The notes under the pieces are model-generated. The model had not been told where the DNA came from and ran no database searches. It saw only the letters and a program-made list of their open reading frames with translations. DNA of 27,163 nt from a virus (taxonomy: Duplodnaviria > Caudoviricetes), in IMG/VR virus record IMGVR_UViG_3300044676_007137, positions 1 to 27,163 of that record, one strand, 5' to 3'. A program made the translations under genes and the position numbers. This document shows, piece after piece, positions 1 through 27,163 of this stretch. Each line of letters starts with the position of its first letter. Position 1 is the first letter of the stretch.

Positions 1-3000
1 CTTTTATATCTACCATTACCAAAGTTGTTTCCTATATCTTCATCTGCGTTGCTATCAGGATATATGTCTCTTGTGTAGAGAGTAGTTCCTGCATAGTTTG
101 TTGTGTAAAGATTTATAGTTTGACCTGATTGACCTATGTAATCAACAAATCTACCACCTGAGCTAGCAGATAAAGTAACACTTCCTCTTAATCCACCAGG
201 ATAAAGAGCTTGTACTGCTGAAGAAGAACTTACATGAGTACCATGACTAACTGCTGCATAATCACTATCGTGGTCGTGATTACCTGCAGCAACTCTAGTT
301 CCTGTAGTTCCAAAGTTTAATGTTATGTTTCTACCACTAATACTTAAAGCATCTGTTGAACCACTAACAGTATCTACATATTCTCCATCGTGATTATGAC
401 CTGTATTTTCTTTAGCACCAAGTAGGGTGTTCATAATGCTTTTTGTATAATACTGATCATCATGATCAGAATCAGCGTGAGTAATAGTTACATCTCCTGT
501 ACCTGCACCTGTAAGAGAAAGTTCTCCTGAAGCAGTTATAGAAGTAACTCCACCTGTTACAGATGAACTTGAATAATCTAATTTACCCTGAGAATCTACT
601 ATTAAATATTTATTACTATCTGCTACTCCACCAATTCTTATTTCTGGTTGTCCTGTACCTGCTGCGCCACTAGAAAAATTAATTCCATCAGAACCTACAG
701 CAGCAAGATTAAGATTTCCATAAGCTAAAATTTGCATATTATTAGATGCAGTAGCTCCTGTTCTAAGCTGTAAAAGAGATGATGATTGAGATAATGCACC
801 AACATCAGTACCTGATGAATTAAAAAGTCTTACTTCTGGTGCAAAAGCAGAAGATATTTCTACTCTTTGACCAGACGAAGCAGTTCTAAATTTACCACTA
901 CCTGAAAGTGTTAGGTTGTCAGTTAAAGAAGAGCTAGCATTCATGTTTACTGCAGAAGTTGTAGAAGTAGGTACGATAGCAACGCCACTAACAAATCCTG
1001 CATTTGCAGTAATTGTACCTGTAACTTCAAGGCTTCCTGATATTTGTACAGCTCCTGAAGTTGTTATAGCTAAGTTACCATTTGCTAATGCAGATATTTC
1101 TACATAATCATCTAAATCAGTTGAGTTTAGAGGACTAAAATTAAGTTGATTTGTTGTGATAGAGTTAGCTGTTATTTTATCTCCATCAATACTTCCATCA
1201 GAAGTTAAAGCATTTACATTTAGTGTTCCTGCAGTTATATCAGAAGCATTTAAAGTACCTCTAATAGTTGCGTTTTGAAACTCTGCTGTTCCATCTGAAT
1301 TAATACTAAAACCTGCAGAACCTGTTGAGTAGTTATAAGATTTTATAAACCCTGAAGTATTTGAAACACCACCAACAGTTATCTCTCCACCTGTAATAGT
1401 CCCTGATGTTATCTTATCTGCTGATAAGTCATTTATCTTTGCAGTAGTAATTGTTGCATCTGCAATAAGAGCGTTTGTTATTTGAGCTTCCCCAATTTTA
1501 GCTGTAGTGATAGTTGCGTCTGTTATGTTAGATTCAGCAATTAAGTTAGCTGTTGCAGTTTGCCCATCAGAAGGATCGGACTCATTACCTGATTTATCAA
1601 CAGCTACTATTCTAAAGTATTGGTCTGTTGAATCCTCCAACTCAATTGTTCCTATAACAGGAATTTGTTGAAGTAGGTTTCCTGAAGTGACTCTGATCTC
1701 TCCAATTTTATTTGCGGTATTTGTAGTAAAGTTTTGTACATTGCCTGTTTGTGTAACAGCGTGAATGTCTAAGTGGTCAACATCTCCCTCTATTGTAAAG
1801 TTTCCATAAGGGTTCCCACCACTGTCTGTTCCATCTTTTCCTAAATAATGTGTTACCTGGACACGCAATGGACCTGCTGCAATAGTTGCAATTTTAGGTT
1901 TAGAAGGTGCTTGACCATCTTTTTCTATTTCAATTCTTGCGTTAGTGGCATAGCTAGGGTTAACACTTGGTGTATTAGTATATAAATCTTCCCCTGATCC
2001 ATCATAGGTAGACATTTTCTTGAATCCTGATTTATCAATTGCAGCAACACCTACATCGTATGTAACTCCTACTGTTAAATCTTGTATTAATAAGCTCTCT
2101 GAACTTACACCTGTAAATGGAAAGTTTTGATAAGAATATTGTGCATCAGTTGTTTTTTTATACCTTATTCTATAATGACTACCATCAGTTATCTGAGATC
2201 CATCGACATTAGTAGGTTTTGCCACTGTTACACGAATAAATCCTATTGAATCTCCTGTTGCGTTCAGATATGTGCCTGATTGAAGCGTAGGAGTGCTTGG
2301 TAGGTCAGGAATAGAGAATACGCCAGCAGTTACCCTATTTAAAGAAAACTCATCAAATCGTAGGTCATCGCCAATAAATCTAATAACATCGCCAAGTTCT
2401 ACTTGTGCTGCTCCAGATTCAAATTGTACATATTGAGTTAGGTCTGTGTAGTTTCCATCTTTATCTCTAAAGTAAACACCCATACCATTTGCTATTGGGA
2501 AAGTTAATCCTACAACTCTTACTTTTACAGGAGTGATGATTTGTCCTCTAAAAGTAACTTCATATAAATCTCTTGATTCTGCAGTAGCGTCAACTGAACT
2601 ATCTATAAATCCAATATCTGGATCAAAGGCAAATATAAAGTCTCCAACCTGCATATCTCCAGAAACTTCGTATTGCTCTAAATCTAAGTTCAAAACTTTT
2701 TTAACTCTAGATAACTCATTTAACATAAGTTGTGCTCTTGAATTTAACTGATCTGTAGGAATTTCGGGTTGTTGGACTAATCCACTTCTACTTAATGCGT
2801 TTCCATGTAAGTCTTTATAAGGATTAGAAGCTATATTTGCTTCTCCAGCTACATCAGTTGCTGAGTCAAAATACCCAACTTCTCCAACGAAGTCTACTCG
2901 TGAAACCCAATCAGTTGCATCAAACTCTGTTCTTAGTCCTTGAGGTACTACGCCATCAAAGTTTGGATCTTCTCCATATCCTGTTTTAACAACAATTGTT

Positions 3001-3599
3001 GAGGGATTGGAATTTACTCCAACGAATAAGTTAGCTGCAGGACCTGCGTCAATAGTTCCATTTGCATTAACTCTATACTCTATGCTGAAAAACTCAGCGA
3101 CTTCTTTTAATGCAGATAAAGCTGTTTGTACAAAGTGTTGACCAATATAAGTACCACTTGGCTCATAAATAACACCCTGGGTTATAGCTTGAGAATTACC
3201 TAATTCGTTTCTTAAGATTCCATAAGGTTTTCCTGAACTCACTGAAGAGTTGAAAAGAGTCTCAGCCAATGTGGTATTTGTATAAACTCTTACTTTTCCA
3301 ACATTTTTAGATTCAGCAATGACCATACCTTTAGACTGACCATCTCCTAAGTAAAGTTGTAAGCCTTGTCCTGAGATATCAACTACACCTTCTTCTAAGG
3401 ATCTGTTTAAAACTATACCTGTATATCTAGAAGTAGAAAGAACATCTGCGTCTGAGAGAGTATTAACATCTACTTCTTGAGGAGTTATGACAATATGTCC
3501 CCACTCTTTTATGGATTCAATTATTTCAGTAGGTGTGAATTCTTGCGAGAAGGATACTGTAAAGTTACCAACACCCATGTGTCTTTCTGTAACTGCCAT
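1..3599 (-). CDS. Tail tip / central tail fibre (host-specificity) protein, >1199 aa, truncated by the window edge
   Basis: Absent from the ORF track because no stop lies in the window. The ATG at 3599 overlaps the upstream stop (TAATG). My translation is open to base 3: MAVTERHMGVGNF...GNGRYK. It has a Tal-like N-terminus, two FN3-like segments (YRIRYKK...YDVGVAAIDKSG; YFRIVAVDKSGNESDPS), DATITTAKI repeats, FSINSDGTAEFQNATIRG, and HxHD-type motifs (GHNHDGEY, GNHDHDSDY). Position after TMP/Dit fits. Confidence 0.85.
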   Translation of the reverse strand, partial: MAVTERHMGVGNFTVSFSQEFTPTEIIESIKEWGHIVITPQEVDVNTLSDADVLSTSRYTGIVLNRSLEEGVVDISGQGLQLYLGDGQSKGMVIAESKNVGKVRVYTNTTLAETLFNSSVSSGKPYGILRNELGNSQAITQGVIYEPSGTYIGQHFVQTALSALKEVAEFFSIEYRVNANGTIDAGPAANLFVGVNSNPSTIVVKTGYGEDPNFDGVVPQGLRTEFDATDWVSRVDFVGEVGYFDSATDVAGEANIASNPYKDLHGNALSRSGLVQQPEIPTDQLNSRAQLMLNELSRVKKVLNLDLEQYEVSGDMQVGDFIFAFDPDIGFIDSSVDATAESRDLYEVTFRGQIITPVKVRVVGLTFPIANGMGVYFRDKDGNYTDLTQYVQFESGAAQVELGDVIRFIGDDLRFDEFSLNRVTAGVFSIPDLPSTPTLQSGTYLNATGDSIGFIRVTVAKPTNVDGSQITDGSHYRIRYKKTTDAQYSYQNFPFTGVSSESLLIQDLTVGVTYDVGVAAIDKSGFKKMSTYDGSGEDLYTNTPSVNPSYATNARIEIEKDGQAPSKPKIATIAAGPLRVQVTHYLGKDGTDSGGNPYGNFTIEGDVDHLDIHAVTQTGNVQNFTTNTANKIGEIRVTSGNLLQQIPVIGTIELEDSTDQYFRIVAVDKSGNESDPSDGQTATANLIAESNITDATITTAKIGEAQITNALIADATITTAKINDLSADKITSGTITGGEITVGGVSNTSGFIKSYNYSTGSAGFSINSDGTAEFQNATIRGTLNASDITAGTLNVNALTSDGSIDGDKITANSITTNQLNFSPLNSTDLDDYVEISALANGNLAITTSGAVQISGSLEVTGTITANAGFVSGVAIVPTSTTSAVNMNASSSLTDNLTLSGSGKFRTASSGQRVEISSAFAPEVRLFNSSGTDVGALSQSSSLLQLRTGATASNNMQILAYGNLNLAAVGSDGINFSSGAAGTGQPEIRIGGVADSNKYLIVDSQGKLDYSSSSVTGGVTSITASGELSLTGAGTGDVTITHADSDHDDQYYTKSIMNTLLGAKENTGHNHDGEYVDTVSGSTDALSISGRNITLNFGTTGTRVAAGNHDHDSDYAAVSHGTHVSSSSAVQALYPGGLRGSVTLSASSGGRFVDYIGQSGQTINLYTTNYAGTTLYTRDIYPDSNADEDIGNNFGNGRYK

Positions 3600-9564: not shown

Positions 9565-10170
9565 TTAAACAGTATCTATAACTTTAAATATGTTGCTAAA
9601 TGGTGCATCACTATTAGGTTTCAACACTTTATATTCGACTGTGATTGTTACCTTTTGTGGTGCTTTAGCATGAACCATTGAGAAAGCCCCAATGTTCACT
9701 GCTCTAGGAACTTGAATGTCCCTAACTTTTCCAGAACCAGCTTCATCTGTTCCTGGTGCATTAACTCTTAACAATAGACCATACTCTAAGAATGAATCTG
9801 TTGCTGGTGGAGTTAATGTTGAATAACCTTCTTCTGGTGCAGAAGTAGCGATTGTTCCACCTGCCATAGCGAGTTTTAAGTTCGCTAATGAGGCCTGTGC
9901 AATTTCGCCTGTTACTCTAATTTCTTGTGCAGTTTTGATTGTCTTAATTGGATCAATCTCTTCTGCAACCATGACATCTTCAAATGTCTTGTCATATTCT
10001 AATGAGAATCCACCCTCAGAATAACCTATATCTGTCCAATACGAACTGTCTGGACCTGCTGAAGGATTTGATGGGAATGTCGCGTTAGGACTTACACCAT
10101 TCAAATCTGATTCAAGTACAGTATATAGAGTACCTGTTCCGAGTAAAACCTCTGTAATACTTTGTGCCAT
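9565..10170 (-). CDS. Major tail (tube) protein, 201 aa
   Basis: LLGTGTLY...WTDIGYSEGGFSLEY motif typical of siphovirus tube proteins; size and synteny fit. Confidence 0.9.
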   Translation of the reverse strand: MAQSITEVLLGTGTLYTVLESDLNGVSPNATFPSNPSAGPDSSYWTDIGYSEGGFSLEYDKTFEDVMVAEEIDPIKTIKTAQEIRVTGEIAQASLANLKLAMAGGTIATSAPEEGYSTLTPPATDSFLEYGLLLRVNAPGTDEAGSGKVRDIQVPRAVNIGAFSMVHAKAPQKVTITVEYKVLKPNSDAPFSNIFKVIDTV

Positions 10171-12493: not shown

Positions 12494-13312
12494 CTAGCCG
12501 AATACTTGTTGATTCTCTACTGTTGTGGGAATATTGTCTAAATCTTTTTTAAGATTTATAAGACCTTCATCATAAGCTTTTTTCTTCCAATCTCCTAAAA
12601 GATTAAGTTCAGCTCTTCTTTGCATATCATTTTCTATAGAGTTAGCTTTAACAAATCTATTTTTCCATTTTGAATACGCTTTACCATAATGAATACAATT
12701 GTATTGAAGTCCTGTACTTGTCTTTCTTGACCTGTGAAAAAAACTTGCAGGTAGCATTCCTGCTTCTCTATATATAGAACACTTCTTTTCTTCTACAGTT
12801 GCTTCAGGAGTGTTTCTTTTATTGTAATAATACTGAACTTGTTTTATGTCACACTCTTTGCATTTGAGCATAAGTTTATCTCTTCCAAATTTTGATTTAT
12901 AAAATTTTGATACAGGCAACACTGTCTCGCAGGAATTACACATTTTAGTAGTAGGGAAGTAAGCATTCTGATAAGCTAACTTCAAAGCTCTGTTTACTTG
13001 TCTCCGAAGTTCATCATTTTCTTTCATCCATTTTTCTAATGTTCTTATTCCAAAGTTTGGTATATGAGTAAATAATCCTGCGTTTAATATTCCATTACTG
13101 TTTTCACAAGCAGCAATAACTTTACCGAATAACTCATGATCAAAAGCTTTAACTGTTGGAAGACCAAATCTAACTCTGAACTGTCTAACTCTTTCTCTTG
13201 AAACTCCCCATTCATTACCCCATTCTGTATTGGTTTTAAATGGTTCTTGTTGTAAAAAACTTACTATTTCGTTTTTTGTTAATTTTTTTGGTGTGTATGT
13301 TTTACTTTCCAA
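12494..13312 (-). CDS. Putative DNA-binding protein: sigma-region-4-like HTH plus two Zn-ribbon-like repeats, 272 aa
   Basis: WGVSRERVRQ (sigma70 region 4-type recognition helix); KMCNSC...KFY...KCKEC and a degenerate copy KKCSIY...FFHR...YNCIHY; TTG start with GAGGAG RBS. Confidence 0.7.
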   Translation of the reverse strand: MESKTYTPKKLTKNEIVSFLQQEPFKTNTEWGNEWGVSRERVRQFRVRFGLPTVKAFDHELFGKVIAACENSNGILNAGLFTHIPNFGIRTLEKWMKENDELRRQVNRALKLAYQNAYFPTTKMCNSCETVLPVSKFYKSKFGRDKLMLKCKECDIKQVQYYYNKRNTPEATVEEKKCSIYREAGMLPASFFHRSRKTSTGLQYNCIHYGKAYSKWKNRFVKANSIENDMQRRAELNLLGDWKKKAYDEGLINLKKDLDNIPTTVENQQVFG

Positions 13313-14233: not shown

Positions 14234-14770
14234 ATGATTGAATTTCCAAATAAAAAATATAAAATAATTTACGCAGATCCTCCATGGTCTTATGACGATC
14301 CCTCTAAGAATAGAGGAGGTGCTGTTAGACATTATCCTACAATGTCTATTGATGATATTTGTAACTTACCTGTAAAAGATATAGCCGATGACGACTGTAT
14401 TTTATTTTTATGGACAACATTTCCTAAATTAATAGAAACAATACCTTTATTTGAAGCATGGGGTTTTACATACAAAACTAATGGATTTACCTGGATTAAA
14501 AAAAACAAAGTATCCACTGATACAAACTTTTGGGGAATGGGTAGGTGGACTAGATCTAATGCAGAAATATGTTTGATTGGTGTTAAAGGTAAACCGAAAA
14601 GATTAAGTGCTGGGGTTCATAGTGTCATAGAAAGTCCTATTGAAAGACATTCAAAAAAACCTGATATAGTAAGAGAAAAAATAATAGAACTTGTTGGAGA
14701 CCTTCCTCGAATAGAATTATTCGCTAGGAATAAAAGTGATGGTTGGGATACTTGGGGTAATGAATCGTGA
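14234..14770 (+). CDS. MT-A70 family amino (N6-adenine-type) DNA methyltransferase, 178 aa
   Basis: IYADPPW, HYPTM, LFLWTT, AWGF.YKT..F.W.K, GMG.WTRSNAE, HSKKP, RIELFAR, GWD.WGNE: the full motif set. Confidence 0.93.
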   Translation: MIEFPNKKYKIIYADPPWSYDDPSKNRGGAVRHYPTMSIDDICNLPVKDIADDDCILFLWTTFPKLIETIPLFEAWGFTYKTNGFTWIKKNKVSTDTNFWGMGRWTRSNAEICLIGVKGKPKRLSAGVHSVIESPIERHSKKPDIVREKIIELVGDLPRIELFARNKSDGWDTWGNES

Positions 14771-16377
14771 AAATAGGAAGTTTATTTAGTGGTATAGGTG
14801 GTCTTGATTTAGGTATAGAAAGAGGTCTTTCTGACTTTGGTGCTGAAACTGTTTGGCAAGTAGAGTTTGATGAGTACTGTTGTTCTGTTTTAGAAAAAAG
14901 ATTTCCTAGATCACAAGTTATTAACAAAGATATTAATGAAGTAAAGTTTGAAGACTTAGAACCTGTCGATATGCTTATCGGTGGTTTCCCTTGTCAGAGT
15001 TTTAGTTACGCAGGTAACAGGAAAGGAATGAGTGAAGAAGATGAACGAGGAATGTTATGGTATCAGTTCGAAAGAGCCATTAGCGTACTTAGACCAAAAT
15101 GGGTTGTGGCAGAAAATGTCAGAGGACTCCTCACAGCCAAAGACGATCAAGGAAACAAAGGAGGAGCTTTCGCAAGAGTTGTTTCTTTCCTTTCCGATAG
15201 CGGGTATAGTGTTGAATGGCAAGTTGTATCAGCAGCCTCGGTTAATGCCTCGCACCTTAGAGAAAGAATATTCATCGTGGGAAACTCCGAACACTATGGA
15301 TTACTTGAAACCGAGAACAGGGGAAGCTTTGGAGAACGCTCTTTATCGTGGAGACAAATCCAAGAAGAGCAAAAGAAAAAGCACAGGGAACCTGAGGGAG
15401 AATCCAAAATTGTGGTCAACACCAAGAGCGAGTCAGGCCTCGAAGCCGATAAACAAACAAGCTCCATCAGTGAAAGCAGGGAAACATGGATCGACTCTAG
15501 AGCAGGACATGGGGGAGAGAAATCCAAAACTTATTGGGAAAAGATTGAACAGCCAATGGGTATCACTACTTATGGGTTTCCCCGCGGATTGGCAGGAGAT
15601 TTAGGATTACCCAACTATTGGGGTTATAGCAACGACAATATGTGGAGAACTCCAACCTTAGCTGATTCAAAGAATGACGCTTTAAAACACGCGACAAAAC
15701 TACTTCAAGGAAAAGACAAAAGAAGCTCAGGACAAAGAATACAAGTTGCTTTAGCTGACCAAGTAGCAATATCTGAGATTATAGAAAATCCTGAATTGTT
15801 TGAACAATACAAAGATCATTTAATGGTAAGAAGAGATAATTTGCCTACTCAAGAAGAGTTTGTAGATTACTTGAGAACTGTTACTTCAGCAAAACAATTA
15901 TTTGATAATACTGAAGGTATAAAGAAATCTACTATTGAACATTGGTTTAGAAGAGATACCTCAGGTTTTAGTTATCCAAGTATTGAAGATTGGGAAATGA
16001 TAAAACCTTATTTAAGTCCTTTGAAATTTGATAAAGAACTTACAGAAGTTACTGATATTGAATGGAAAAGAGATAAGTGGCAAACACCCTTAGTTTCTAG
16101 TAGTAGACCAAGCACAACAAGAATAGCTAAAGGTATAAATCCAAAAGGTCAACTTTCAGAAAACCCTGGAGTCTATACAGAAGAATATCTTATAGAGCCT
16201 TGGGAAACTGTTCCAAGAACAATAGAAAATGAAGAAGACAGAATAAATAAAATCAAAGCACTAGGAAATGCAGTTGTTCCTGCCTGTGCTGAATTTGTTG
16301 GTATTTGCATTGCGAACTCTATAAAGTTCGGTATACTTGTGTTTGATAGTATATATGAAAGAGAGAACAAAAAATGA
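14767..16377 (+). CDS. C5-cytosine DNA methyltransferase, large (alpha) chain, 536 aa
   Basis: Motif I FSGIGG, IV GFPCQ, VI ENVRG, VIII RERIF, X KALGNAVVP; no canonical motif IX in this frame; GTGA overlap with the MT-A70 gene. Confidence 0.93.
   Translation: MKIGSLFSGIGGLDLGIERGLSDFGAETVWQVEFDEYCCSVLEKRFPRSQVINKDINEVKFEDLEPVDMLIGGFPCQSFSYAGNRKGMSEEDERGMLWYQFERAISVLRPKWVVAENVRGLLTAKDDQGNKGGAFARVVSFLSDSGYSVEWQVVSAASVNASHLRERIFIVGNSEHYGLLETENRGSFGERSLSWRQIQEEQKKKHREPEGESKIVVNTKSESGLEADKQTSSISESRETWIDSRAGHGGEKSKTYWEKIEQPMGITTYGFPRGLAGDLGLPNYWGYSNDNMWRTPTLADSKNDALKHATKLLQGKDKRSSGQRIQVALADQVAISEIIENPELFEQYKDHLMVRRDNLPTQEEFVDYLRTVTSAKQLFDNTEGIKKSTIEHWFRRDTSGFSYPSIEDWEMIKPYLSPLKFDKELTEVTDIEWKRDKWQTPLVSSSRPSTTRIAKGINPKGQLSENPGVYTEEYLIEPWETVPRTIENEEDRINKIKALGNAVVPACAEFVGICIANSIKFGILVFDSIYERENKK
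15032..15604 (+). CDS. Overprinted C5-MTase small (beta) chain carrying motif IX, ~190 aa
   Basis: Open +1 frame fully nested in the MTase gene; ends RLNSQWVSLLMGFPADW (motif IX-like); contains two WxTP modules; AAGGA precedes GTG 15032 / ATG 15041. Confidence 0.85.
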   Translation: MKKMNEECYGISSKEPLAYLDQNGLWQKMSEDSSQPKTIKETKEELSQELFLSFPIAGIVLNGKLYQQPRLMPRTLEKEYSSWETPNTMDYLKPRTGEALENALYRGDKSKKSKRKSTGNLRENPKLWSTPRASQASKPINKQAPSVKAGKHGSTLEQDMGERNPKLIGKRLNSQWVSLLMGFPADWQEI

Positions 16378-16475
16378 ACAGATTAGAGCGTAGAGCTGCG
16401 AAATCAAAAAAGAAACACAGATATCAGGGGATAAGTAAGACACAAGTCCTACACCCAGGTGTCATAGATAGATAA
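16374..16475 (+). CDS. Basic microprotein, 33 aa (MNRLERRAAKSKKKHRYQGISKTQVLHPGVIDR)
   Basis: Translated by hand; ATGA overlap with the MTase stop; next ATG follows its stop directly. Confidence 0.6.
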   Translation: MNRLERRAAKSKKKHRYQGISKTQVLHPGVIDR

Positions 16476-16604
16476 ATGAAAATAAAAATTATCTTGAACA
16501 GTGGTGGGGAATTTGTAGATATACATTTTATAGATCCACCTATTCACATTCCTATGGATGTAGAAATAGTTCACGAAGATGATCTTGAAGCAGAGGAAGA
16601 ATAA
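16476..16604 (+). CDS. Acidic microprotein, 42 aa (MKIKIILNSGGEFVDIHFIDPPIHIPMDVEIVHEDDLEAEEE)
   Basis: Translated by hand; abuts both neighbours with zero gap. Confidence 0.6.
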   Translation: MKIKIILNSGGEFVDIHFIDPPIHIPMDVEIVHEDDLEAEEE

Positions 16605-16847
16605 ATGATTAGTACATTAATAATTGTCATGGGTATGACAAGTTGGGGGCAAATGGCTCTTGAAATGAGTATCCTCGCAGACATGATGCACAATATGGGC
16701 AACCAACAAGAAGTAGTTTACAACTATTGGTGTGATGGTGTTAGGTGTGATGAGTATGGACACGATGGTTACGAAGGAATACCTGAAGACTGCACTACTG
16801 AAGAAGAGGAAAATGGATCATGTGGTTTCGGTTTAGTTCAACCATAA
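16605..16847 (+). CDS. Small protein with hydrophobic N-terminus and Cys/acidic C-terminus, 80 aa
   Basis: GAGGA RBS; MISTLIIVMG leader; four Cys in the acidic tail. Confidence 0.7.
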   Translation: MISTLIIVMGMTSWGQMALEMSILADMMHNMGNQQEVVYNYWCDGVRCDEYGHDGYEGIPEDCTTEEEENGSCGFGLVQP

Positions 16848-16960
16848 ATAATTTATTAGATTCGTTCATAGAAAGAGCTATGTTTAGCTATGAATTGTGG
16901 AAATGGGAGAAAGATAAAAGAAGCGAAGGATTTCCTAAAGAATGGTTTGAAGAAGAGTAA
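16820..16960 (+). CDS. Microprotein, 46 aa (MWFRFSSTINNLLDSFIERAMFSYELWKWEKDKRSEGFPKEWFEEE)
   Basis: Translated by hand; GAGGA 9 nt upstream; fills the gap exactly up to the convergent stop at 16961. Confidence 0.55.
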   Translation: MWFRFSSTINNLLDSFIERAMFSYELWKWEKDKRSEGFPKEWFEEE

Positions 16961-17200
16961 TTAAAACTGTACTTTTCTTTTGGCTGCTTTACTTGCTTTT
17001 TCTCTCATAGATGGAGAAACTTTAGAAGGATCAGTATTCCAATCAATGCCAACAGTTCCATAGAGATTAACCCTAGAGCTAATTTGTCTATTAGATAATG
17101 CTTTACATTTTTCACATTTGATTTTAGGTTCATCGTGTATTGAGTGTTGTACTTCGAATACATGTTCACATTTAGAACACTTATAGTCGTAGCGAGCCAT
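16961..17200 (-). CDS. FmdB-family zinc ribbon protein, 79 aa
   Basis: MARYDYKCSKCEHVFE...KCEKC...RQIS matches the YxYxCxxCxxxFE...CxxC pattern. Confidence 0.85.
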   Translation of the reverse strand: MARYDYKCSKCEHVFEVQHSIHDEPKIKCEKCKALSNRQISSRVNLYGTVGIDWNTDPSKVSPSMREKASKAAKRKVQF

Positions 17201-17391
17201 TACTTCTCGAAAGATTTACAGATTTTTAAGTAAAGATTTACTAAATCATCTGCGTCTTGTACTAAGTTAATTCCTTTTATTCTCATGTAATTGAATTGTT
17301 TTAGTACTGCTTCCTTGAATTGCTCGTCATCAATTAATTCGTTGACAGCATCTTCACGCTTTGTCCCATCAGGGAATTTTAATTCGCTCAT
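17200..17391 (-). CDS. Hypothetical protein, 63 aa
   Basis: TAATG coupling on both sides. Confidence 0.75.
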   Translation of the reverse strand: MSELKFPDGTKREDAVNELIDDEQFKEAVLKQFNYMRIKGINLVQDADDLVNLYLKICKSFEK

Positions 17392-18077
17392 TAGTCTAGT
17401 ATACCTGCCGAAGTGAAGTATTGCCTCTTATACTTACTTAGGACTTTTCTATCAGCATCTTGTAAAATATCTGCATTAAGCTGATCTAATACTGATTCAT
17501 AAGTTACCTGGTAATCTCCGATACCTTCATTTCTTACTAGTTGAAATTTACTATCTACTGAATTATCGGATATATTCGTATTTACAGTTCCTGTGCTTTG
17601 TTGAGAGGACAAAGATAGAGCTGAGACGATAAGTCTTCCTGTTGCTCTTGCACAAATATATTTTAAATCACTTGGGATATCTTCTGCTGAAGCTTCGCTA
17701 TCTGAATAGCCTGCTGTATAAACAACAGTAATGTTTTGTAATCTAACTGCTGACCATTTTTCTTTTCCAACTTTTCTCAATCTTCCAAGTTTGGAATAAA
17801 GAACATAGTCGTTTGAGTTTCCCTCTGTTAATGCGTTGCCATCTTCTGTTACAGAAGTAACTGATACTACAGGGGATCGACTTAAAAATAAGTCTTCTGT
17901 TTTATCGCCATCAAACTTTTCAGTGATACTAGCTGTGTAGTTTGGGTTGTATCCAACGAAGTTTGCAATAGCGTCTTCCACAGTCGGAATTAATAAATTC
18001 GTAACTGTAGTTTCGTCAGTAGAGCCTAAATCTACACCAAGTACTTTCTCGACATCAGATACTGTACATAGTGCCAT
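17391..18077 (-). CDS. Head-tail adaptor/connector protein (gp6/gp15-like), 228 aa
   Basis: LCTVSDVE N-terminus, L.RSPVVSVTSV, ITVVYTAGY, IPSDLK, EGIGDYQVTY, L.KYKR; position after the capsid gene. Confidence 0.85.
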   Translation of the reverse strand: MALCTVSDVEKVLGVDLGSTDETTVTNLLIPTVEDAIANFVGYNPNYTASITEKFDGDKTEDLFLSRSPVVSVTSVTEDGNALTEGNSNDYVLYSKLGRLRKVGKEKWSAVRLQNITVVYTAGYSDSEASAEDIPSDLKYICARATGRLIVSALSLSSQQSTGTVNTNISDNSVDSKFQLVRNEGIGDYQVTYESVLDQLNADILQDADRKVLSKYKRQYFTSAGILD

Positions 18078-18084
18078 TTAGGAC

Positions 18085-18336
18085 CTACTTATCTTCTGTG
18101 TCTTTTGGTTTTACAGCTTTATTTTCTACTTTTTTCTTTGGAGCAGCTTTTTTCTTAGCAGGAGCTTTTTTCTTCTCGCCCCAACCTTGCTCTTTAAGCC
18201 ATGCTGTAGGGTATTCTTTACCTGCTTTAGCAATTAAAGAAGCACCTGATTTAGGAAGATCAGCAAAGTCGCCTTCCCAAATTTTTCCATCGCTTAATTT
18301 CCAAATACTTTTCTTTGGTTTCATAAAATCTGACAT
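18085..18336 (-). CDS. Small Lys-rich head-associated protein, 83 aa
   Basis: Directly after MCP; PAKKKAAPKKKVENKAVKP low-complexity tail; AAGGA RBS. Confidence 0.7.
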   Translation of the reverse strand: MSDFMKPKKSIWKLSDGKIWEGDFADLPKSGASLIAKAGKEYPTAWLKEQGWGEKKKAPAKKKAAPKKKVENKAVKPKDTEDK

Positions 18337-18361
18337 AATTTTCCTTCTTTTAAAAATTGAT

Positions 18362-18404
18362 TTAGTTCGTAAGGGGCAGGGTTACTACCCCTTACATAAA
18401 CTAA
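18362..18404 (-). terminator. Stem-loop downstream of the major capsid gene (probable terminator/attenuator)
   Basis: GUAAGGGGUAG-UAACC-CUGCCCCUUAC 11-bp stem (18369-18395) with a further flanking stem; a U5 run follows shortly after. Confidence 0.7.
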
Positions 18405-18418
18405 TTAACAACTATTCC

Positions 18419-19672
18419 TTAGAATGCTGTTATTTTGTGGAAAGCAGCTTGCCTGTAAACAGGGAAACCGACTCTCATTGTTGCTCTAATAGCTAATTGA
18501 TTTTTAACAAAGAAATCGCTATGGCTATCTGAGATTGCCAAATCGATTCCATTTCTCATCACAACTTGAGCAGCATCGCCACCACCGAACTTACCAACAA
18601 GAACAGTGTTCTCTGGTATAGCTGTGGTTGCAACAACTTTAAGTCCCCAAATGGATGCAACAGGTGCGTTGCCCATAGCTCCTGAAGCTATGAAAAGAGG
18701 TACATTAGCTGCATATCCTGCAGTAGCATCTCCAGCAAATCCTGTTAAGTCTGTTACGACTGCATTCCAATCATTTGGGTGCATAACAATTGCGTCTGGC
18801 TCTACGAAAGCATTTACACGAATATCGGTAATTGCTCCATAAAGTGCTCCAATTCTACCTAAGTTTCCTGAGTAGGAACCGAAAGCAGTTGAGCCAACGC
18901 TAGTTTTTCCAGCGTCTAATAATCCTTCTAAGTTAGGTGCAGTACCATCTCCAGAGAGAAGTTGGCTGTCCAAACGAAGTTTGATCATTGTTTGTAATCT
19001 TGAGTTTATGTATCCTTGAATACCAGAAACATCTGACAATAGTTCATCAGTTACAGGCAAGAAAACGCCCATTTTTCTGATGGATTCTGATTGCTCAGTG
19101 AAGGCTAATGCACCTTCTCCTACAGTCGCACCTTCAGCAGCTTCTGCTGCGTTGTTTGTGAATGTAGTTTCTTCAAGATAGCTATAAGCATTTTGGTCTG
19201 TTTCGATTTGATCGAAAAGACTAATAACGCTATTAGGGTCTCTTAAAGCAGATTCCAATATACCAGGTGCTCTTAGAACCTCTGGTGGATATCCTGTTGT
19301 GGTTAAAGTAGTTTTGTATTCTAGTGGGCTAAAGTTAGCTTTAGAATCAATACCCTTTACACCATTGCTCTTGTAGTTCTTGTAAGCGTCTGTGTTAACA
19401 AACTGACTTCCAATATCCATTGGAGCAACTTTTTCCGATTGATAAGCTTGTTCTGCAGGCTCTGAGTCTATTTCCATAGCTTTCTCATTTTTTGCCTGAG
19501 CAGATTTAAGATTTACTTCTTCTACAAGACTAGCAAGTTCTTCATTTCTTTTGGAAATTGCCTCTTTTTGATCAGAGGTGTACTTGCCATTTTCGTCTGC
19601 AGCTTCGAAGAGTTCTTTCATTTCTACTCTTTTAGCAGCAAGCTTTTCTCGGAGATCTTTAATATCTGACAC
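18419..19672 (-). CDS. Major capsid protein, HK97 fold, with N-terminal delta (scaffold) domain, 417 aa
   Basis: Coiled-coil N-terminus; AAEGA...; PVTDELLSD; QLLSGDGT..NLEGLL; IVMHPNDW; IWGLKVV; DFFVKNQLAIRA.MRVG; GTG start with AAGGAG RBS. Confidence 0.95.
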   Translation of the reverse strand: MSDIKDLREKLAAKRVEMKELFEAADENGKYTSDQKEAISKRNEELASLVEEVNLKSAQAKNEKAMEIDSEPAEQAYQSEKVAPMDIGSQFVNTDAYKNYKSNGVKGIDSKANFSPLEYKTTLTTTGYPPEVLRAPGILESALRDPNSVISLFDQIETDQNAYSYLEETTFTNNAAEAAEGATVGEGALAFTEQSESIRKMGVFLPVTDELLSDVSGIQGYINSRLQTMIKLRLDSQLLSGDGTAPNLEGLLDAGKTSVGSTAFGSYSGNLGRIGALYGAITDIRVNAFVEPDAIVMHPNDWNAVVTDLTGFAGDATAGYAANVPLFIASGAMGNAPVASIWGLKVVATTAIPENTVLVGKFGGGDAAQVVMRNGIDLAISDSHSDFFVKNQLAIRATMRVGFPVYRQAAFHKITAF

Positions 19673-19703
19673 GATATTCTCCTTTTTATCTAGCTTAATT
19701 TTT

Positions 19704-21005
19704 TTATATTTCGTCTATTTCTTGTTCAGCTATAAGAGATTCTGTCATTTGAACTTGAGCTTGAAGTATGACTTCATCAATTGAATCATCTACTTCTTCC
19801 TCAGTTGCATCTTCGGAAACTTCTTCTTCTTCAACTACTTCAACTTCGACTTCTGCTTCTTCAATTTCTACATCTTCTGTAATTTCCTCAGATACTTCTT
19901 CGGAGACTACTTCAGTTGCTTCTTCTTCAGTAACAGGAGCTTCTTCTTCCATAGCTTCAATTTCATCAGTGACTTCAGGTACTTTACCCACTTGAGATAT
20001 AACTTCATCAAGTTCTTCCCAAGCGTCATTCAAATCATCTTGAACCGCTCTTAATGCTGTTGTCGCTTCTTTTGACAATTTCCTACCATCCTTTTCTCTC
20101 AAGATACCAATAGCTTTGGTTCTTGAAATTAAGTCATCTAATGCTGCAAGCACATCTTTGACTTCTTCAGAGAAACGCTTTCCTGTCATGCTGGAATCGC
20201 TCTTTGAAACTTCTAAATCTTTTTCTTTTTCTTTTGCACACTTACCTGAATCGTTGTAGTCGCAATTGCCATAACCTTTTTCATCTTCAGTATTCTCTAC
20301 TTCAACATCAGCTTCTTTACCTGCTGACATTTTTTCATAATCTTCGTGTGTTTTACAAGGCATAAAGTAAGTAGTGCCATCTCTATCAACTGAGTGTGAA
20401 CCTTCACAACCCAATTCTTTTGCACGAGTGACAGCTTCTTCTTCTGTAGTAAAGTGATCTTGCATTAAAGCAACAGGTTCTTTTACTTCTTCAGTTGCCT
20501 CGCTTTTTGATTCGTATACTGTATCTTCGCCTGTTTTGATTGCGAGGGTATAGGTCTCTTGGTTTGCACCAACTAAGACAGGGGATACTTCGTATACTGT
20601 GAGGTCTTTAAGGAATCGAGCTTGTGTTTCGGAATCATCTTTTTGAACTTTTCCTACTTCAGAATCATTGACTCTAAATCCGAATGACCACTGTTGTAAG
20701 TCGCCCATTGATTTGACAAGATTGTATGCTTCTTTCCCTGCTTCGGTCTCCATGAAAAATGAGCCTTTAAATACTGCAGAGTCTTCTTTCTCTTCTATGA
20801 CTCCTTTACCGATTGGTTGATCCCACTTGTGAGCAAAAACCATAGGGACTTGATTATTAGCAAATCCTGATTTGACAGCACCTGGGACTACTACATCTCC
20901 ATCGCTATCTACATTGTTGTAAACTGAAAAGACAGCTTCAACTGAACCTTTTTCTTCTCCATCCTCTTTGATGGAAAGATCAAAACTTTTGATTTCTTTA
21001 TCCAT
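19704..21005 (-). CDS. HK97-family prohead protease with C-terminal accessory domains, 433 aa
   Basis: SVYNNVDSDGDVV.PGA, FAH (His), WSFGF (Ser), EVSPVLVGAN; followed by a GCEGSH...MPCKTH module, a helical segment with GRKLS and an acidic tail. Confidence 0.93.
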   Translation of the reverse strand: MDKEIKSFDLSIKEDGEEKGSVEAVFSVYNNVDSDGDVVVPGAVKSGFANNQVPMVFAHKWDQPIGKGVIEEKEDSAVFKGSFFMETEAGKEAYNLVKSMGDLQQWSFGFRVNDSEVGKVQKDDSETQARFLKDLTVYEVSPVLVGANQETYTLAIKTGEDTVYESKSEATEEVKEPVALMQDHFTTEEEAVTRAKELGCEGSHSVDRDGTTYFMPCKTHEDYEKMSAGKEADVEVENTEDEKGYGNCDYNDSGKCAKEKEKDLEVSKSDSSMTGKRFSEEVKDVLAALDDLISRTKAIGILREKDGRKLSKEATTALRAVQDDLNDAWEELDEVISQVGKVPEVTDEIEAMEEEAPVTEEEATEVVSEEVSEEITEDVEIEEAEVEVEVVEEEEVSEDATEEEVDDSIDEVILQAQVQMTESLIAEQEIDEI

Positions 21006-21029
21006 TAACCTATACCTCTTCTTTATATT

Positions 21030-21052
21030 AATACTGTTTACTTGACAGTATC
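21030..21052 (-). other. Short intergenic hairpin between portal and protease
   Basis: GAUACUGU-7 nt-ACAGUAUU stem upstream of the protease RBS; no U-tract. Confidence 0.4.
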
Positions 21053-21055
21053 AAC

Positions 21056-23617
21056 TTAATTGTCTGTACTATTTAGTTTAACACTTTGATTTACGATCTG
21101 TTCAGCTTTCTTATTCCGAGCATCGTCTTTCTTCTTTTGCTCGTTAACTATTTTCTTCATAGCTGATACTCCAGACTTAGTAACTCCGCCCCACTTCATA
21201 ACCGCAATGGTTCCATTGAGTCGGGTGTTACCTTGATGTCTGTTCATAAATGCTTCTCTTCTTTTTACCCACGATAGTACTGAGGCACTTCGGTCTCCTG
21301 CTTTGTATTTAGTCCAATTTCTAAAAGCGTCATTTCCTGTGAAAGAAGTAGGTGGATTACCTCCATTACCTGCTCTCCTCCATATCTTTGGATAGTTTTC
21401 TTTTAGATTTTTTATGTAAGCGTAATCAGGGAACTGTCTAAAGTCTGAATTACTTAGACTGATCTTTTGATTATCGCCTGCATTTGGAAAATTTGTTTGG
21501 TCGCCTGGTGCTTTATCGTCTTTTCTAAAGTCTGCAATTATTCTTAATTTAGAGATTGGTTGCACGACTGACCTGTCAGTTATTTTGTGGGTACCATCTT
21601 CCATAATTGCCCAAACCATCATTGTTGCAGTTTCTTTTTCATTATTGACTGAAGTTACAATACCATGAATAGTTGATGGTGGATCTGGATCTTTATTAAT
21701 TGACCAACTAACAGCATCTCCAATCTTTACAGAGTCTGCTTTACTATTCTCAGCTTCTGTTTCAAAGATTCTTTCATTAAGAGTTTCTGCTTCCTCTAAT
21801 GATACTTTTAATTCGTCAATCATATCTGTTGACTTTGAACTTTTAGGATGTCCTGCAGGTAACAGATCTAAATCAAATGGTTTTCTAGGGAAAGAACCAT
21901 TTAGTCCTTTTATAAACGCGTTAACCCTGGCTATTCCCCATTGGGTTGCACCTGTAACATTACCTCTTACTGAAGCTGGGTTAGTGCTGTATGCACCAAC
22001 ACCTCTTCTAAATACAGCCGATAACATTCTGTAGTTAGCTTTAAATTTAGGATTTTTTGAATTATGTTCTGTTACTTTTTTTTGAAGAGATTTTTTTACC
22101 TTTTCAGAAATAGGTGCTTTTTCTTCATCTAAGTAACTTGGTGTTAAAACTATATTACCTTCTCTGTTTATTTCTACAGGCATTGTTTCAGTAGAAAGTG
22201 TTTTTTCTTCTACTTCAAAATTTGCAGAAGCTTGAACCATTACATCTGATTCTTCGTTATCAGGATCTCTTTCATCTCCTATATCTTCTTCAGGCTCTTT
22301 GTTAGGACTTGCTAAATAATCTTCTTTTTTAGTTGGTTCAAGGTTTAGTGGTCTTAGGAATACTTCATGCTCATCTCCATATTCGAGCCCGACAGCTTTT
22401 CTAGCTTCGGCAACTGTTATCCAACCACCTGCTACACCTGTTTGCATTCTCTTAAACATTTCGCCTTTGTCTACATCTAATGCTCTTACTTCGCCTAAAT
22501 CATATCTACAAACGACTTTATTATCATTTGTGTAATCTGCTTGTAATAGCTGTGCTGTAATTTCATTAGAAACGACTTGCCACAGAGGAATTAACTTCTG
22601 CTCAGTAAAGAATTCTCTTAACTCTCTAGTGTTGTTATAGGTAGCAGCTTCTAGACCTGCTCCTAATCCTGCAAGAATAGCAGGAACACCAAGAACAGCA
22701 GAAACTCTTTCCTCAGGCAATCTCCTTAGTTGGTTAAGGTTCAGTTGTTCAGGAGACCAAGATACAACTTTCACATCCATAGAACCTGAAAGTATCATCG
22801 GAGCACCCCTGTTCGAACCACCAAATTTTTGTTTATAGATTTGAGCTATAGCTTCAGCCTCGTCTTGGCTTGGACCACCCATAGCGTCATCTTTAGGAGA
22901 TAAGATAACTCCAGGTACTGCCATGTTATGTAACAAAGCAGCTGCGTATTGTCCTGCAGCTTCGTCTCCTAAAATTTCTCTAAGGACTGCTTTTAATGGA
23001 GCGAATCCTTTCCTGTGATTGTTTGGATCTATTCCTTGTCGGATATGTACTACTTCTGAAGCAGGTAGTACAGAAAACTCATTAGCATTTATTGAGTTTG
23101 GATCTTTAACATAATATTCATAGTGAGTAATTAATTCTTTTTCATTTCCTCTTGGTTTTACATAATGAGGAATTAGTGGAACAAGTTCTACGACTCTTCC
23201 GCTTTTATTTCTGTTCTTTAAAAGATAAGCATTACCTTCAGCATTTAAAGCTGTAATCATATAACTTGCTAGTAACGAACCTGATGTGTAAGGATTAGGT
23301 CTATTAATAAGTTGAGTAACAGGATGATTGTCTAATACCTCGAAGTCATTTTCACTTGTCTCTCTGTAAACTTTTAATCTTGGTTCGGCAAAAGATGTTG
23401 TCAAAACATTGAGACATGCTACAACAGCTGAGTTTCCTGTTCCATCTCCAATTTCTTTTAACAGCTTATCAGGCATAAATCCTGATTGAGTGTTGTATCC
23501 GAATACTTGTGAATCTACAGAACTATTTTGTAAAAAACCTTTTTGCTCTGTAGTTCTTTGAGGTGGTGCTTGAAGATAATCTACAGCTCTTCTATAAAAA
23601 CTTTTGTTTTCTGCCAT
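21056..23617 (-). CDS. HK97-family portal protein with ~420-aa multi-domain C-terminal extension, 853 aa
   Basis: Portal core aa ~55-430 (NSAVVAC, RPNPY, GNAYL, VVHIR, G.APL, PGVIL, LGVPAILAG, T..EAR...GL), then an acidic linker and three discrete basic/globular domains. Confidence 0.93.
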   Translation of the reverse strand: MAENKSFYRRAVDYLQAPPQRTTEQKGFLQNSSVDSQVFGYNTQSGFMPDKLLKEIGDGTGNSAVVACLNVLTTSFAEPRLKVYRETSENDFEVLDNHPVTQLINRPNPYTSGSLLASYMITALNAEGNAYLLKNRNKSGRVVELVPLIPHYVKPRGNEKELITHYEYYVKDPNSINANEFSVLPASEVVHIRQGIDPNNHRKGFAPLKAVLREILGDEAAGQYAAALLHNMAVPGVILSPKDDAMGGPSQDEAEAIAQIYKQKFGGSNRGAPMILSGSMDVKVVSWSPEQLNLNQLRRLPEERVSAVLGVPAILAGLGAGLEAATYNNTRELREFFTEQKLIPLWQVVSNEITAQLLQADYTNDNKVVCRYDLGEVRALDVDKGEMFKRMQTGVAGGWITVAEARKAVGLEYGDEHEVFLRPLNLEPTKKEDYLASPNKEPEEDIGDERDPDNEESDVMVQASANFEVEEKTLSTETMPVEINREGNIVLTPSYLDEEKAPISEKVKKSLQKKVTEHNSKNPKFKANYRMLSAVFRRGVGAYSTNPASVRGNVTGATQWGIARVNAFIKGLNGSFPRKPFDLDLLPAGHPKSSKSTDMIDELKVSLEEAETLNERIFETEAENSKADSVKIGDAVSWSINKDPDPPSTIHGIVTSVNNEKETATMMVWAIMEDGTHKITDRSVVQPISKLRIIADFRKDDKAPGDQTNFPNAGDNQKISLSNSDFRQFPDYAYIKNLKENYPKIWRRAGNGGNPPTSFTGNDAFRNWTKYKAGDRSASVLSWVKRREAFMNRHQGNTRLNGTIAVMKWGGVTKSGVSAMKKIVNEQKKKDDARNKKAEQIVNQSVKLNSTDN

Positions 23618-24880
23618 CTAATACGCTTTCCAGTTAATTCTCTTATTCAAGTTTAATACTCCATACGCTAATGTATCAACTATATCGTCATGGGAACCCA
23701 ATGGAAAAGTAAGAAGCTCTCTTTCAGCTTCGTGAACCCAATTTTCCATAGGATCGTCAGGAAAAAAAACCTGCCCACTTTCCATCTTAGCTGATAGTGG
23801 CATAGCTCTGCTGCGTTTGTCACGATCTGCTTTTAGCTCTCTTACTTGAATACCTTCTCTTTTAGCGAATTGAATAATAGATAACTGAAATCCTGCTCTT
23901 TCAATACCAATCCAATCGAGATTGTTTTTTTTGTAAAACTTTTTCATTGCAGGAATTATGTCAGGAGCTTCCATTCTTTTACGAAGCATGTCAGTAATGA
24001 ATAATTTGTTTTCATTCTGATCATGAGCAAATGCAGTAAAGACTGTGTAGTCAGCAGTTTGCTTTGTTGATGTTGCTAAGTCTACAGTTGCATACCTAAC
24101 CATATTGTCGAATTCATATAGTTCTTCATCTAGCTTGGCTCCTCTAACAGCGGGAGTGTAATATCTGAACCATTCAGGTCTAAAGAGTTGAGTACCTTCG
24201 TTTACAAACTCTGCTTCATACTCCTGGGCATAAGTAAGAGAACCAATTTCTTCTTTGGCACTTTCTAGTTCTTTAGGATCAATCGCAGGGTTATCAACAG
24301 TGGAGAATTTGAATCTCTCCCAATCCTCTCTAGTCTCAGCGTCTTGCCATAATCTATAGAACCAATTGTTTTGTCCACGAGGTGTAGAGATGAATAAAGC
24401 AGAACCTTTTCTTTCAGTTAAGGTAGGTCGAAGAACTTCAGTCCAGGTTTCTTCTTTCACAAAGGCAGCCTCGTCCATAACAAGAAAGTCAAGACCTTCT
24501 CCACGAAGTCTCTGTGGATTGTCAGCAGACTTTACTGATATGAAACCGCCATTAGGAAAAGAGACAATCATGTCTCCCATTTTTACTTCTGCACCCATTC
24601 CAGCTAAGTCATAGCCTGCCATCATAATATCTCGCCACCCTACTCGTGCAATAGAGAATGTAGGTGCAACCCACCACGCTCTTTTACCAGCTATGGCAGT
24701 TTCAATGCAAAGTTGCACTCCCAACCTTGTTTTCCCAAAACGCCTACCTGCACAGAGTATTTTCCAACGAGATTTTGATTCTGCAACTGTTTTTTGATTT
24801 TCATGTAGCTTAGGGAGTTGGACTCTTCTTTCGTTGTCAGTCTTCTCCACAAAAAATTGGCTGAACTTAGGATCTTCCAT
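23618..24880 (-). CDS. terL: Terminase large subunit, 420 aa
   Basis: Walker A AGRRFGKT, Walker B FLVMDEA, ISTP coupling motif, RNase H-like TVDLA...IE...HDDIVD. Confidence 0.95.
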   Translation of the reverse strand: MEDPKFSQFFVEKTDNERRVQLPKLHENQKTVAESKSRWKILCAGRRFGKTRLGVQLCIETAIAGKRAWWVAPTFSIARVGWRDIMMAGYDLAGMGAEVKMGDMIVSFPNGGFISVKSADNPQRLRGEGLDFLVMDEAAFVKEETWTEVLRPTLTERKGSALFISTPRGQNNWFYRLWQDAETREDWERFKFSTVDNPAIDPKELESAKEEIGSLTYAQEYEAEFVNEGTQLFRPEWFRYYTPAVRGAKLDEELYEFDNMVRYATVDLATSTKQTADYTVFTAFAHDQNENKLFITDMLRKRMEAPDIIPAMKKFYKKNNLDWIGIERAGFQLSIIQFAKREGIQVRELKADRDKRSRAMPLSAKMESGQVFFPDDPMENWVHEAERELLTFPLGSHDDIVDTLAYGVLNLNKRINWKAY

Positions 24881-24892: not shown

Positions 24893-24894
24893 TA

Positions 24895-24983: not shown

Positions 24984-24991
24984 TCAAGTTA

Positions 24992-26624: not shown

Positions 26625-26970
26625 TCATCCATCTGATATAGCACTGTACTCTGCCATCGTTAGTGATACTTCTTATTTCTATTGGAAGTCCTTTATATTT
26701 TAAGTGGTTCATTGAACTTCTTGCTGAAGCAGCAACTTTTGCCCTAACTTTTGGATCATCTACAAGCTCCTCAAATGTAATAATCCATTTCATAGGATTA
26801 GCTTGTGCTAAATTCAAAGCTTCGTGAGTCCAAAACTTAGCTCTCCTTCTTTTCAAAGCATAAGGAATGTCCTCTACAATTTTTGGTGTAAAATCGTAAT
26901 CAAATTTCTCTGCTTTTTGATAAACACTCCAATTTTGAAGGGTGGAGTCCCATTTCTCATTATTCGTCAT
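26611..26970 (-). CDS. Hypothetical protein, 119 aa
   Basis: AAGGAG RBS; preceded by an AT-rich promoter-like region. Confidence 0.75.
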   Translation of the reverse strand: MTNNEKWDSTLQNWSVYQKAEKFDYDFTPKIVEDIPYALKRRRAKFWTHEALNLAQANPMKWIITFEELVDDPKVRAKVAASARSSMNHLKYKGLPIEIRSITNDGRVQCYIRWMNDSE

Positions 26971-26993
26971 ATTCTCCTTTATTAATTATTTAT

Positions 26994-27021
26994 ACTTTAC
27001 ACTATATTATTATTTATGCAA
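26994..27021 (-). promoter_or_regulatory. Putative sigma70-type promoter TTGCAT-16 nt-TAAAGT
   Basis: AT-rich intergenic region; -35 box resembles the TTGCA boxes at 13354-13367. Confidence 0.4.
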
Positions 27022-27120
27022 GTATATGTTTTTGTTATATATCTACTTAGACACTCATTCCTTAGAAAAGGTTACATAGAAAGATCAGTATTCCTACTTG
27101 CCCGCTTTACGAAGTAAAGC

Positions 27121-27160
27121 TTAGGTATAGTTCTTTAGGTATAGTTAATTAGGTATAGTT
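27121..27160 (+). repeat. Three exact copies of TTAGGTATAGTT at 14-bp period (iteron/operator-like)
   Basis: Copies at 27121, 27135 and 27149; the array may continue beyond the window. Confidence 0.85.
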
Positions 27161-27163
27161 AGT

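Follow-up and report, generated by a model that had tools for sequence, protein, structure and literature searches.

Loss of MCGK tetranucleotides from an uncultured tailed phage and the likely role of host restriction

Why would a tailed phage that retains CpG dinucleotides in all other contexts lack every copy of four tetranucleotides that differ only in the bases flanking the CpG? The question is raised by IMG/VR record IMGVR_UViG_3300044676_007137, a part of a tailed phage genome with a G+C content of 36% that was analysed over its whole length of 27,163 nucleotides (hereafter, the window; positions 1..27163). Exact counts on both strands show that ACGT, CCGG, ACGG and CCGT, that is, all words that match the degenerate palindrome MCGK (M, A or C; K, G or T), are absent throughout. 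This gap likely results from selection by restriction enzymes of the bacterial host of the window phage, and MCGK itself is probably a composite of separate targets.

The MCGK gap and other words missing from the window

The plus-strand counts of ACGG, ACGT, CCGG and CCGT in the window are all 0, and every one of the other twelve NCGN words is present, including ACGA (51 copies), ACGC (28), CCGA (36), CCGC (13), GCGT (48), TCGT (83), GCGG (10), TCGG (36) and TCGA (43); the palindrome CGCG occurs 6 times. The base that follows ACG is A or C in 79 of 79 cases, as is the base that follows CCG in 49 of 49, and on the other side, the base before CGT is G or T in 131 of 131 cases and that before CGG in 46 of 46. 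The initial annotation of this sequence, which was made by eye, had described the gap as extending across the window, with roughly 80 ACG and 50 CCG trinucleotides never followed by G or T, and the exact counts bear out both the pattern and the estimates.

Judged only by the bases that flank its 423 CpGs, the window should contain about 54 MCGK words. Under a maximal-order Markov model, the expectation is 26.1 for ACGT (z -9.6) and 11.8 each for ACGG and CCGT (z -5.9 each). As a codon-aware null, we performed 1000 shuffles of synonymous codons within each of 28 open reading frames (ORFs), which jointly account for 25,704 of the 27,163 nt; this procedure preserves each protein and the codon usage of each gene. 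The shuffled sequences contain 89.4 +/- 7.1 MCGK words, with 69 as the lowest count among the 1000 shuffles, and the expectations for the individual words are 32.5 for ACGT, 14.4 for CCGG, 29.8 for ACGG and 12.7 for CCGT, against 0 observed in each case. Because proteins and codon usage are kept in this null, the gap is not due to codon usage. The remaining CpG contexts are at the codon-shuffle expectation (observed/expected, MCGM 176/165, KCGK 111/105, KCGM 117/127), and therefore, as the initial annotation had concluded, there is no general loss of CpG. Every MCGK is removable by a synonymous change, and the 1,535 non-coding bases contain 21 CpGs, none of them in the MCGK context. Thus, the depletion stands under both the Markov and the codon-shuffled null models that had been proposed as a check.

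The MCGK-related loss sits among at least eight lost words in the window. The single GCGC reported previously, at 664..667, is indeed the only one (1 vs 13.8 expected by codon shuffle and 18.1 under the Markov model), and the few copies of GGCC amount to exactly four, at 9892, 11177, 15436 and 26145 (4 vs 12.2; four or fewer in 3 of the 1000 shuffles). Several gaps that are as strong as that of MCGK had been overlooked. In codon-shuffle terms, these are GGTGA/TCACC (0 vs 45.5), CCAGT/ACTGG (1 vs 39, the sole copy being located at 23630..23634 on the plus strand), CGWCG (0 vs 8.8), ATGCAT (0 vs 7.6), CATATG (0 vs 7.7) and CCAG/CTGG (61 vs 137). Most of these words can be matched with enzymes: we take GGTGA to be the site of HphI, ACTGG of BsrI, CGWCG of Hpy99I, GCGC of HhaI, GGCC of HaeIII, ATGCAT of NsiI and CATATG of NdeI, and ACGT and CCGG are presumably known Type II sites as well. 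For ACGG/CCGT, we know of no described enzyme.

A mosaic of lost words among relatives

Relatives of the window phage were found and placed through the genes of its head module (17391..24880, minus strand), which encode the large terminase, the portal, an S78 protease with DUF3721, the HK97-type capsid protein and an adaptor. A search of IMG/VR with the capsid protein yielded 136 relatives and one with a capsid alignment 460; the best 80 of each set were retained, 41 of those in the second set being new. The capsid trees are quick IQ-TREE reconstructions with support from the Shimodaira-Hasegawa-like approximate likelihood ratio test (SH-aLRT) only, and the expectations for contigs beyond the window (G numbers) come from crude ORF picks, namely, the longest non-overlapping ORFs of at least 60 amino acids (aa). 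A survey of words covered 184 of 235 loci (L numbers) of at least 8 kb, with the 51 loci of G+C above 0.43 dropped; single-linkage clustering in this survey placed the window's family in one 92-member cluster, so that lineages are undercounted, and the survey was used as a list of examples.

The gap extends to whole contigs of 46-53 kb. MCGK is absent from G006 (52.0 kb, estimated to be 90% complete; 144 sites expected), G007 (52.8 kb; 175 expected) and G008 (46.4 kb; 162 expected), which amounts to 0 vs ~480 sites over these three diverged genomes. The near-twin of the window, G001 (46.5 kb, 94-97% identical), contains five MCGK words, all of them within 44161-45604 (L085:4161-5604), a patch of about 1.5 kb that lacks a long ORF and carries broken tail-fibre-like fragments. 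Both GGTGA, both ACTGG and the sole CGWCG of G001 fall within the same patch, which was either imported recently from a differently constrained phage or arose as an assembly chimera.

Among the 80 capsid-matched loci, 9 show the MCGK gap, which is also found in L099, L102, L105, L114 and L175-L180. The MCGK-free set consists of the window group, L007, L033/L078/L176, L102/L175/L105 and L177-180/G006, and falls within a 15-row clade together with L030-32, which lack ACGT and have kept the rest (in G009, CCGG 6/13 and ACGG/CCGT 40/55). The C5 methyltransferase tree groups the MCGK-free phages as a single clade (SH-aLRT 89), so that one origin of the gap suffices. In the first sample, ACGT is absent across the window's 19-row capsid clade and its 24-row sister clade, with a single ACGT in one row, and it is present in the taxa added later (L185-189, L214, L215). 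Some relatives have lost ACGT only, for example, G004 (0/74) and G010 (0/46). Judging from these sequences, the loss of ACGT is older than that of CCGG and ACGG/CCGT. Another clade lacks CCGG only (in L047, CCGG 0/10 and ACGT 52/57). An apparent partial depletion of CCGG in L008-13 and L030-32 vanished once codon-aware expectations were used (6/13 in G009 and 17/12 in G010).

Other words add to the mosaic. GATC is gone from most clades outside the window's (0 vs 105-150 in the 45-72 kb contigs G002-G004, L086-L095), CATG stands at 0/105 in G002 and 8/70 in G003, and GGCC or GCGC is absent from further clades. Within the MCGK-free clade, ACTGG, GCGC and GGCC come and go, whereas the MCGK trio is constant at zero: ACTGG is missing in the window group and L175 and present in 12-21 copies in L078, L033 and L176, and GCGC is found at 18/23 in G006. 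Such switching of ACTGG and GCGC is as expected from strain-variable restriction systems. Furthermore, the gap tracks the genome lineage rather than particular genes because an early-gene module common to G006 and G010, with 24-82% protein identity, is site-free in the former and not in the latter, a phage with CCGG at 17/12 and ACGG/CCGT at 54/58.

Sites that are MCGK in relatives have been replaced in many different ways in the window, most frequently by C>T at base 2 (7 of 16 sites of L031, 11 of 30 of L009 and 12 of 32 of L011); the other replacements include transversions and changes of base 1 or base 4 with the CpG retained.

Two side observations concern words other than MCGK. The counts of GATC suggest that this word is building up again in the window's clade (27/90 in G009, 38/91 in G010 and 67/92 in the window); the C5 methyltransferase was considered as an explanation of the tolerance of GATC and rejected, given that the word is also carried by G006 and G010, neither of which has the gene. 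CCAG/CTGG is about twofold down beyond the loss of ACTGG in the window (61/137), G007 (142/321) and G009 (44/139), and also in G008 and G010; it is at a normal level in G003 and G004, and CAGG/CCTG is enriched under the Markov model.

Probable host restriction and its alternatives

The observed pattern is the one that restriction avoidance would leave. The counts are far below both composition-aware and codon-aware expectations, the loss affects both strands and the entire genome independently of particular genes, and the lost words differ among related phages. Being complete, strand-symmetric, genome-wide, synonymous and lineage-specific, the gap supports restriction avoidance as the cause, and the varied mosaic of lost words among the relatives is a classic signature of avoidance under variable host restriction systems. 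Mechanistically, incoming unmethylated phage DNA would be cut at any new site, making such a site lethal, and the survivors would be synonymous variants devoid of sites; the two methyltransferases encoded by the phage would cover other host enzymes. Of the three options raised in the initial annotation, a host restriction system with a single MCGK specificity is thus supported with respect to the cause, given the complete, symmetric, genome-wide loss and the mosaic, and is more likely wrong with respect to the single specificity because the parts of MCGK are lost separately.

Taking the evidence jointly, we favour, with some reservation, host restriction by two or three separate enzymes, with ACGT, CCGG and, for an undescribed enzyme, ACGG/CCGT as the targets, over one MCGK enzyme. 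The undescribed enzyme would cut ACGG/CCGT alone or as part of a degenerate word. The separation of the parts is best seen in further phage groups that were found by a scan with an MT-A70 methyltransferase alignment. In G015 (30 kb; portal 59% identical), ACGT (0/43) and CCGG (0/9) are missing and ACGG/CCGT is retained (43/52), a pattern shared by L331-335. G011 and G017 represent an unrelated family that has only methyltransferase genes in common with the window phage; G017 (31 kb) lacks ACGT (0/24) and ACGG/CCGT (0/26) and has CCGG at 2/4.3, and distant members of the same family have lost ACGT and CCGG and retained ACGG/CCGT. G016 (28.6 kb), a relative of G017 with 78% identity to G011 in one 447-aa protein, lacks ACGG/CCGT (0/22) and CCGG (0/3.7) and contains 3 ACGT. 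G012, which is distinct again, with matches to only 4 of the ORFs of G011, has ACGT at 0/10, CCGG at 4/3 and ACGG/CCGT at 0/16 in the ORFs, with 2 copies over the contig as a whole. The three words are, accordingly, not always lost or kept together: in G017, G011 and G012, ACGG/CCGT is lost with CCGG kept, at CCGG expectations of only 3-4. These counts indicate that the loss of ACGG/CCGT is recurrent, having occurred in at least three lineages, and can be complete with CCGG or ACGT present.

Several points weigh against separate enzymes or against host restriction altogether. No restriction gene was seen, nor did scanning of 185,579 reference genomes, with one capsid match at 35% identity as the sole outcome, point to a host. 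In the window's clade, CCGG is always lost together with ACGG/CCGT, and since the MCGK-free phages group as a single clade on the methyltransferase tree, both losses map to a single branch, for which one enzyme is the simpler explanation. The evidence that CCGG separates from the other words involves small numbers (2-4 sites vs 3-4 expected), and the 317-aa C5 methyltransferase of G011 and G017 could protect their CCGG sites; G016, in which no C5 methyltransferase was found, has 0 CCGG along with 0 ACGG/CCGT. An MCGK enzyme is also chemically plausible: the alternative bases in M and in K share, respectively, an amino and a keto group in the major groove, and there are precedents in AccI (GTMKAC) and MspA1I (CMGCKG).

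An alternative is one host system with a degenerate, CpG-centred specificity, be it MCGK or an asymmetric MCGG/CCGK atop an older ACGT enzyme, which would account for the loss of CCGG and ACGG/CCGT and from which the phage would escape by having no site. Taken together, the three words make up just one degenerate palindrome, and CCGG and ACGG/CCGT vanish together and stay at zero through a clade with about 20% capsid divergence. Such a system seems possible, although clearly the less probable arrangement: the loss of ACGT came earlier and is found alone in many relatives, G016 retains its 3 ACGT with ACGG/CCGT at 0/22, G012 retains 4 CCGG with no methyltransferase found in its 41%-complete contig, and the loss of ACGT and CCGG without that of ACGG/CCGT is common. 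We know of no enzyme of MCGK or MCGG/CCGK specificity, and a full-text literature search for MCGK, ACGK, MCGT, CCGK and MCGG as specificities, which did not cover REBASE, returned nothing relevant.

A more speculative version of host restriction, which we consider doubtful, invokes a family of CpG-centred nucleases with graded flanks (from ACGT through ACGG or MCGK to any CpG), such that the window phage would escape the MCGK grade and a group of nearly CpG-free, distant relatives the grade that requires CG only. The latter group is exemplified by G013 (L320:1-20000 plus L321:1-4109) and also takes in L256, L242, L258, L262, L265 and L270 partly; identities are 39% in the terminase, 43-48% in the portal, 34% in the capsid protein and 64-69% in the MT-A70 protein. 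A single CG occurs in the 24,109 nt of G013, where base composition predicts 663 and codon shuffling 131, along with 964 GC dinucleotides; G013 also lacks GGTGA (0/27), ACTGG (0/27) and GGCC (0/9). In the literature on CpG-depleted phages, we found no paper describing phages of this type, and one may ask, in view of them, whether selection against a dinucleotide can be exerted by a bacterial system.

The second option of the initial annotation, a phage-encoded nuclease that cuts host DNA at MCGK, with the phage protected by the absence of sites in its own genome, would likewise produce a gap that is genome-wide and complete, and one 272-aa protein has weak matches to the zinc region of endonuclease VII. 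However, homologues of this protein are found in 50 of the 80 related loci, whichever words are absent. In the sampled 80-90% of these genomes, comparison of G001/G008, G006 and G007 with G009 and G010 revealed no ORF that every MCGK-free genome possesses and the others lack; Pfam searches of the window and of the additional parts of G001 and G008 detected no nuclease domain; and ACGG/CCGT is also lost in unrelated phages that have only methyltransferase genes in common with the window phage. We therefore regard a phage nuclease as very improbable.

Even less can be said for the third option, the decay of sites by deamination of 5-methylcytosine at the targets of the phage's own C5 methyltransferase. 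The gene is present in the window, C>T at CpG is the commonest single difference at orthologous sites, and CTGT/ACAG is in excess (283 vs 238.5). Nevertheless, the comparison of relatives with and without the methyltransferases goes the other way: G006 is MCGK-free although it lacks both methyltransferases, and L031, L009 and L011 possess the C5 methyltransferase yet retain ACGG/CCGT. The predicted excess of deamination products is not observed either, with MTGK/MCAK at 759 vs 780 (z -1.4), ATGT/ACAT at 188 vs 192 and CTGG/CCAG at 61 vs 136. Moreover, mutation pressure alone would lead to an equilibrium number of sites, not to 0 vs ~480.

An assembly or sequencing artefact can be dismissed for practical purposes because the same gap is seen in independent contigs (the 9 of 80 capsid-matched loci and the further loci), near-identical DNA is found in 20 runs from 16 studies among the matches listed, the long reading frames are intact, and synonymous alternatives occupy the lost sites.

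Gene content, methyltransferases and comparison with known systems

The reading frames of the window are intact and long. Apart from the head module, the minus strand encodes a head completion protein, a tape measure protein and a tail fibre, and a short plus-strand cassette consists of a lysin-like gene followed by genes for an MT-A70 methyltransferase and a C5 methyltransferase. There are no tRNA genes in the window. The lysin-like gene, together with the peptidoglycan-binding endolysin and holin genes of G008, indicates a bacterial host. The part of G008 beyond the window encodes two 2OG-Fe(II) oxygenases and a 4Fe-4S ferredoxin (L226:18206-19632, L227:2712-2975), presumably as auxiliary genes of the kind that marine phages typically carry; genes for replication were not recognised in that part.

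The phage has no close relatives among cultured ones. A megablast search of 50,697 phage records with the window gave no match, and the best capsid identity to cultured phages is 36%, too low for a host to be borrowed from them. Scanning the 185,579 reference genomes with the C5 methyltransferase gave no match, and with the capsid alignment a single one, at 35% identity, in an actinomycete metagenome-assembled genome, which is too distant for naming an actinomycete as the host; WhiB, a marker gene of actinobacterial phages, was not found in 5 contigs. Near-identical DNA is present in estuary, seawater and viral metagenomes and in one run (X14) that bears a coded organism label (the 20 runs mentioned above); no identifiable isolate was found among the public runs listed.

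The MT-A70-type DNA N6-adenine methyltransferase gene (14234..14770, plus strand) encodes 178 aa with a DPPW motif (PF05063, E-value 6e-31; PHROG 359, E-value 1e-85). The adjacent ORF (14767..16377, plus strand; 536 aa) has a PF00145 match over residues 1-236 (E-value 3e-50) and, in its translation, the motifs FSGIGG (I), GFPCQSFS (IV, with PCQ), AENVRG (VI, with ENV) and GNAVVP (X), by which it is assigned to the predicted C5-cytosine DNA methyltransferases; a protein atlas confirmed it as phage-type. Neither methyltransferase tracks the MCGK gap, the MT-A70 gene being absent from the MCGK-free G006 and G007 and the C5 gene from G006. The variable region of the C5 methyltransferase is unusually long (~300 aa) and contains two W-x-T-P modules in the window. 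Two copies are also found in the rest of the window group, L102, L105 and L109, one in L104 and L106, as a result of a deletion, and three in L107-113, through an insertion of 45 aa, a pattern that suggests the acquisition and loss of target-recognition modules. As a side observation on MT-A70 genes, G015 (L322 plus L323) has two of them in tandem (16165-17201), and GATC is over-represented in this contig (214 vs 132 expected).

Next to the methyltransferase cassette lies the gene for the 272-aa protein (12494..13312, minus strand), a zinc-ribbon protein with a Lar-like restriction alleviation match (PHROG 5558, E-value 3.4e-16), a helix-turn-helix-like N-terminal region, weaker matches to the endonuclease VII zinc region and no Pfam match. 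On the strength of these profile matches, it is a possible further anti-restriction gene; its homologues, counted among the best 80 of the 136 relatives, occur in avoiders and non-avoiders alike. The phage would, then, probably combine site loss with self-methylation and, perhaps, an anti-restriction protein.

Word gaps in phages can be read as traces left by defence enzymes of the host that no one has cultured or assayed. At least 10 specificities in one uncultured host group are recorded by this phage family, and the complete loss of ACGG/CCGT is found in at least three lineages, which belong to two or three phage groups unrelated to one another. Should the host be found, the recognition words of its restriction genes are predicted by the pattern, and a newly described CpG cutter with a 4-bp or degenerate site would serve as a reagent for methylation analysis.

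With regard to known systems, the phage C5 methyltransferase may be compared with the multispecific enzymes of Bacillus phages SPR, phi3T and rho11s, which are phage-borne, have a long variable region and provide self-protection. These enzymes contain tandem target-recognition domains, which the W-x-T-P repeats may resemble; the enzyme of the window phage does not follow the MCGK gap in its distribution, being missing from G006 and present in L031 and L009. The homodimeric AccI and MspA1I accept A or C on one side of the site and G or T on the other, as a single MCGK enzyme would. However, their sites are 6 bp long, unlike the 4-bp MCGK, for which we know of no enzyme, and the data for the window favour a composite.

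Restriction-site avoidance is well known, and the mechanism proposed here is an ordinary one; what is new is the breadth of the loss, its mosaic distribution over a family of uncultured phages and the fact that ACGG/CCGT has been completely lost more than once. In the part of their survey that is drawn upon here, Rusinov et al. (2018, BMC Genomics 19:885, PMC6286503) report avoidance in about one tenth of viral genomes, mainly of the sites of orthodox Type II systems and in non-temperate double-stranded DNA phages. As in the phages described there, short recognition words are completely or nearly completely lost from the window phage. Unlike in those phages, as far as that part of the survey goes, at least eight words are lost at once here, and one of these is an asymmetric tetranucleotide, ACGG/CCGT, for which we know of no enzyme and which is lost again in an unrelated phage family.

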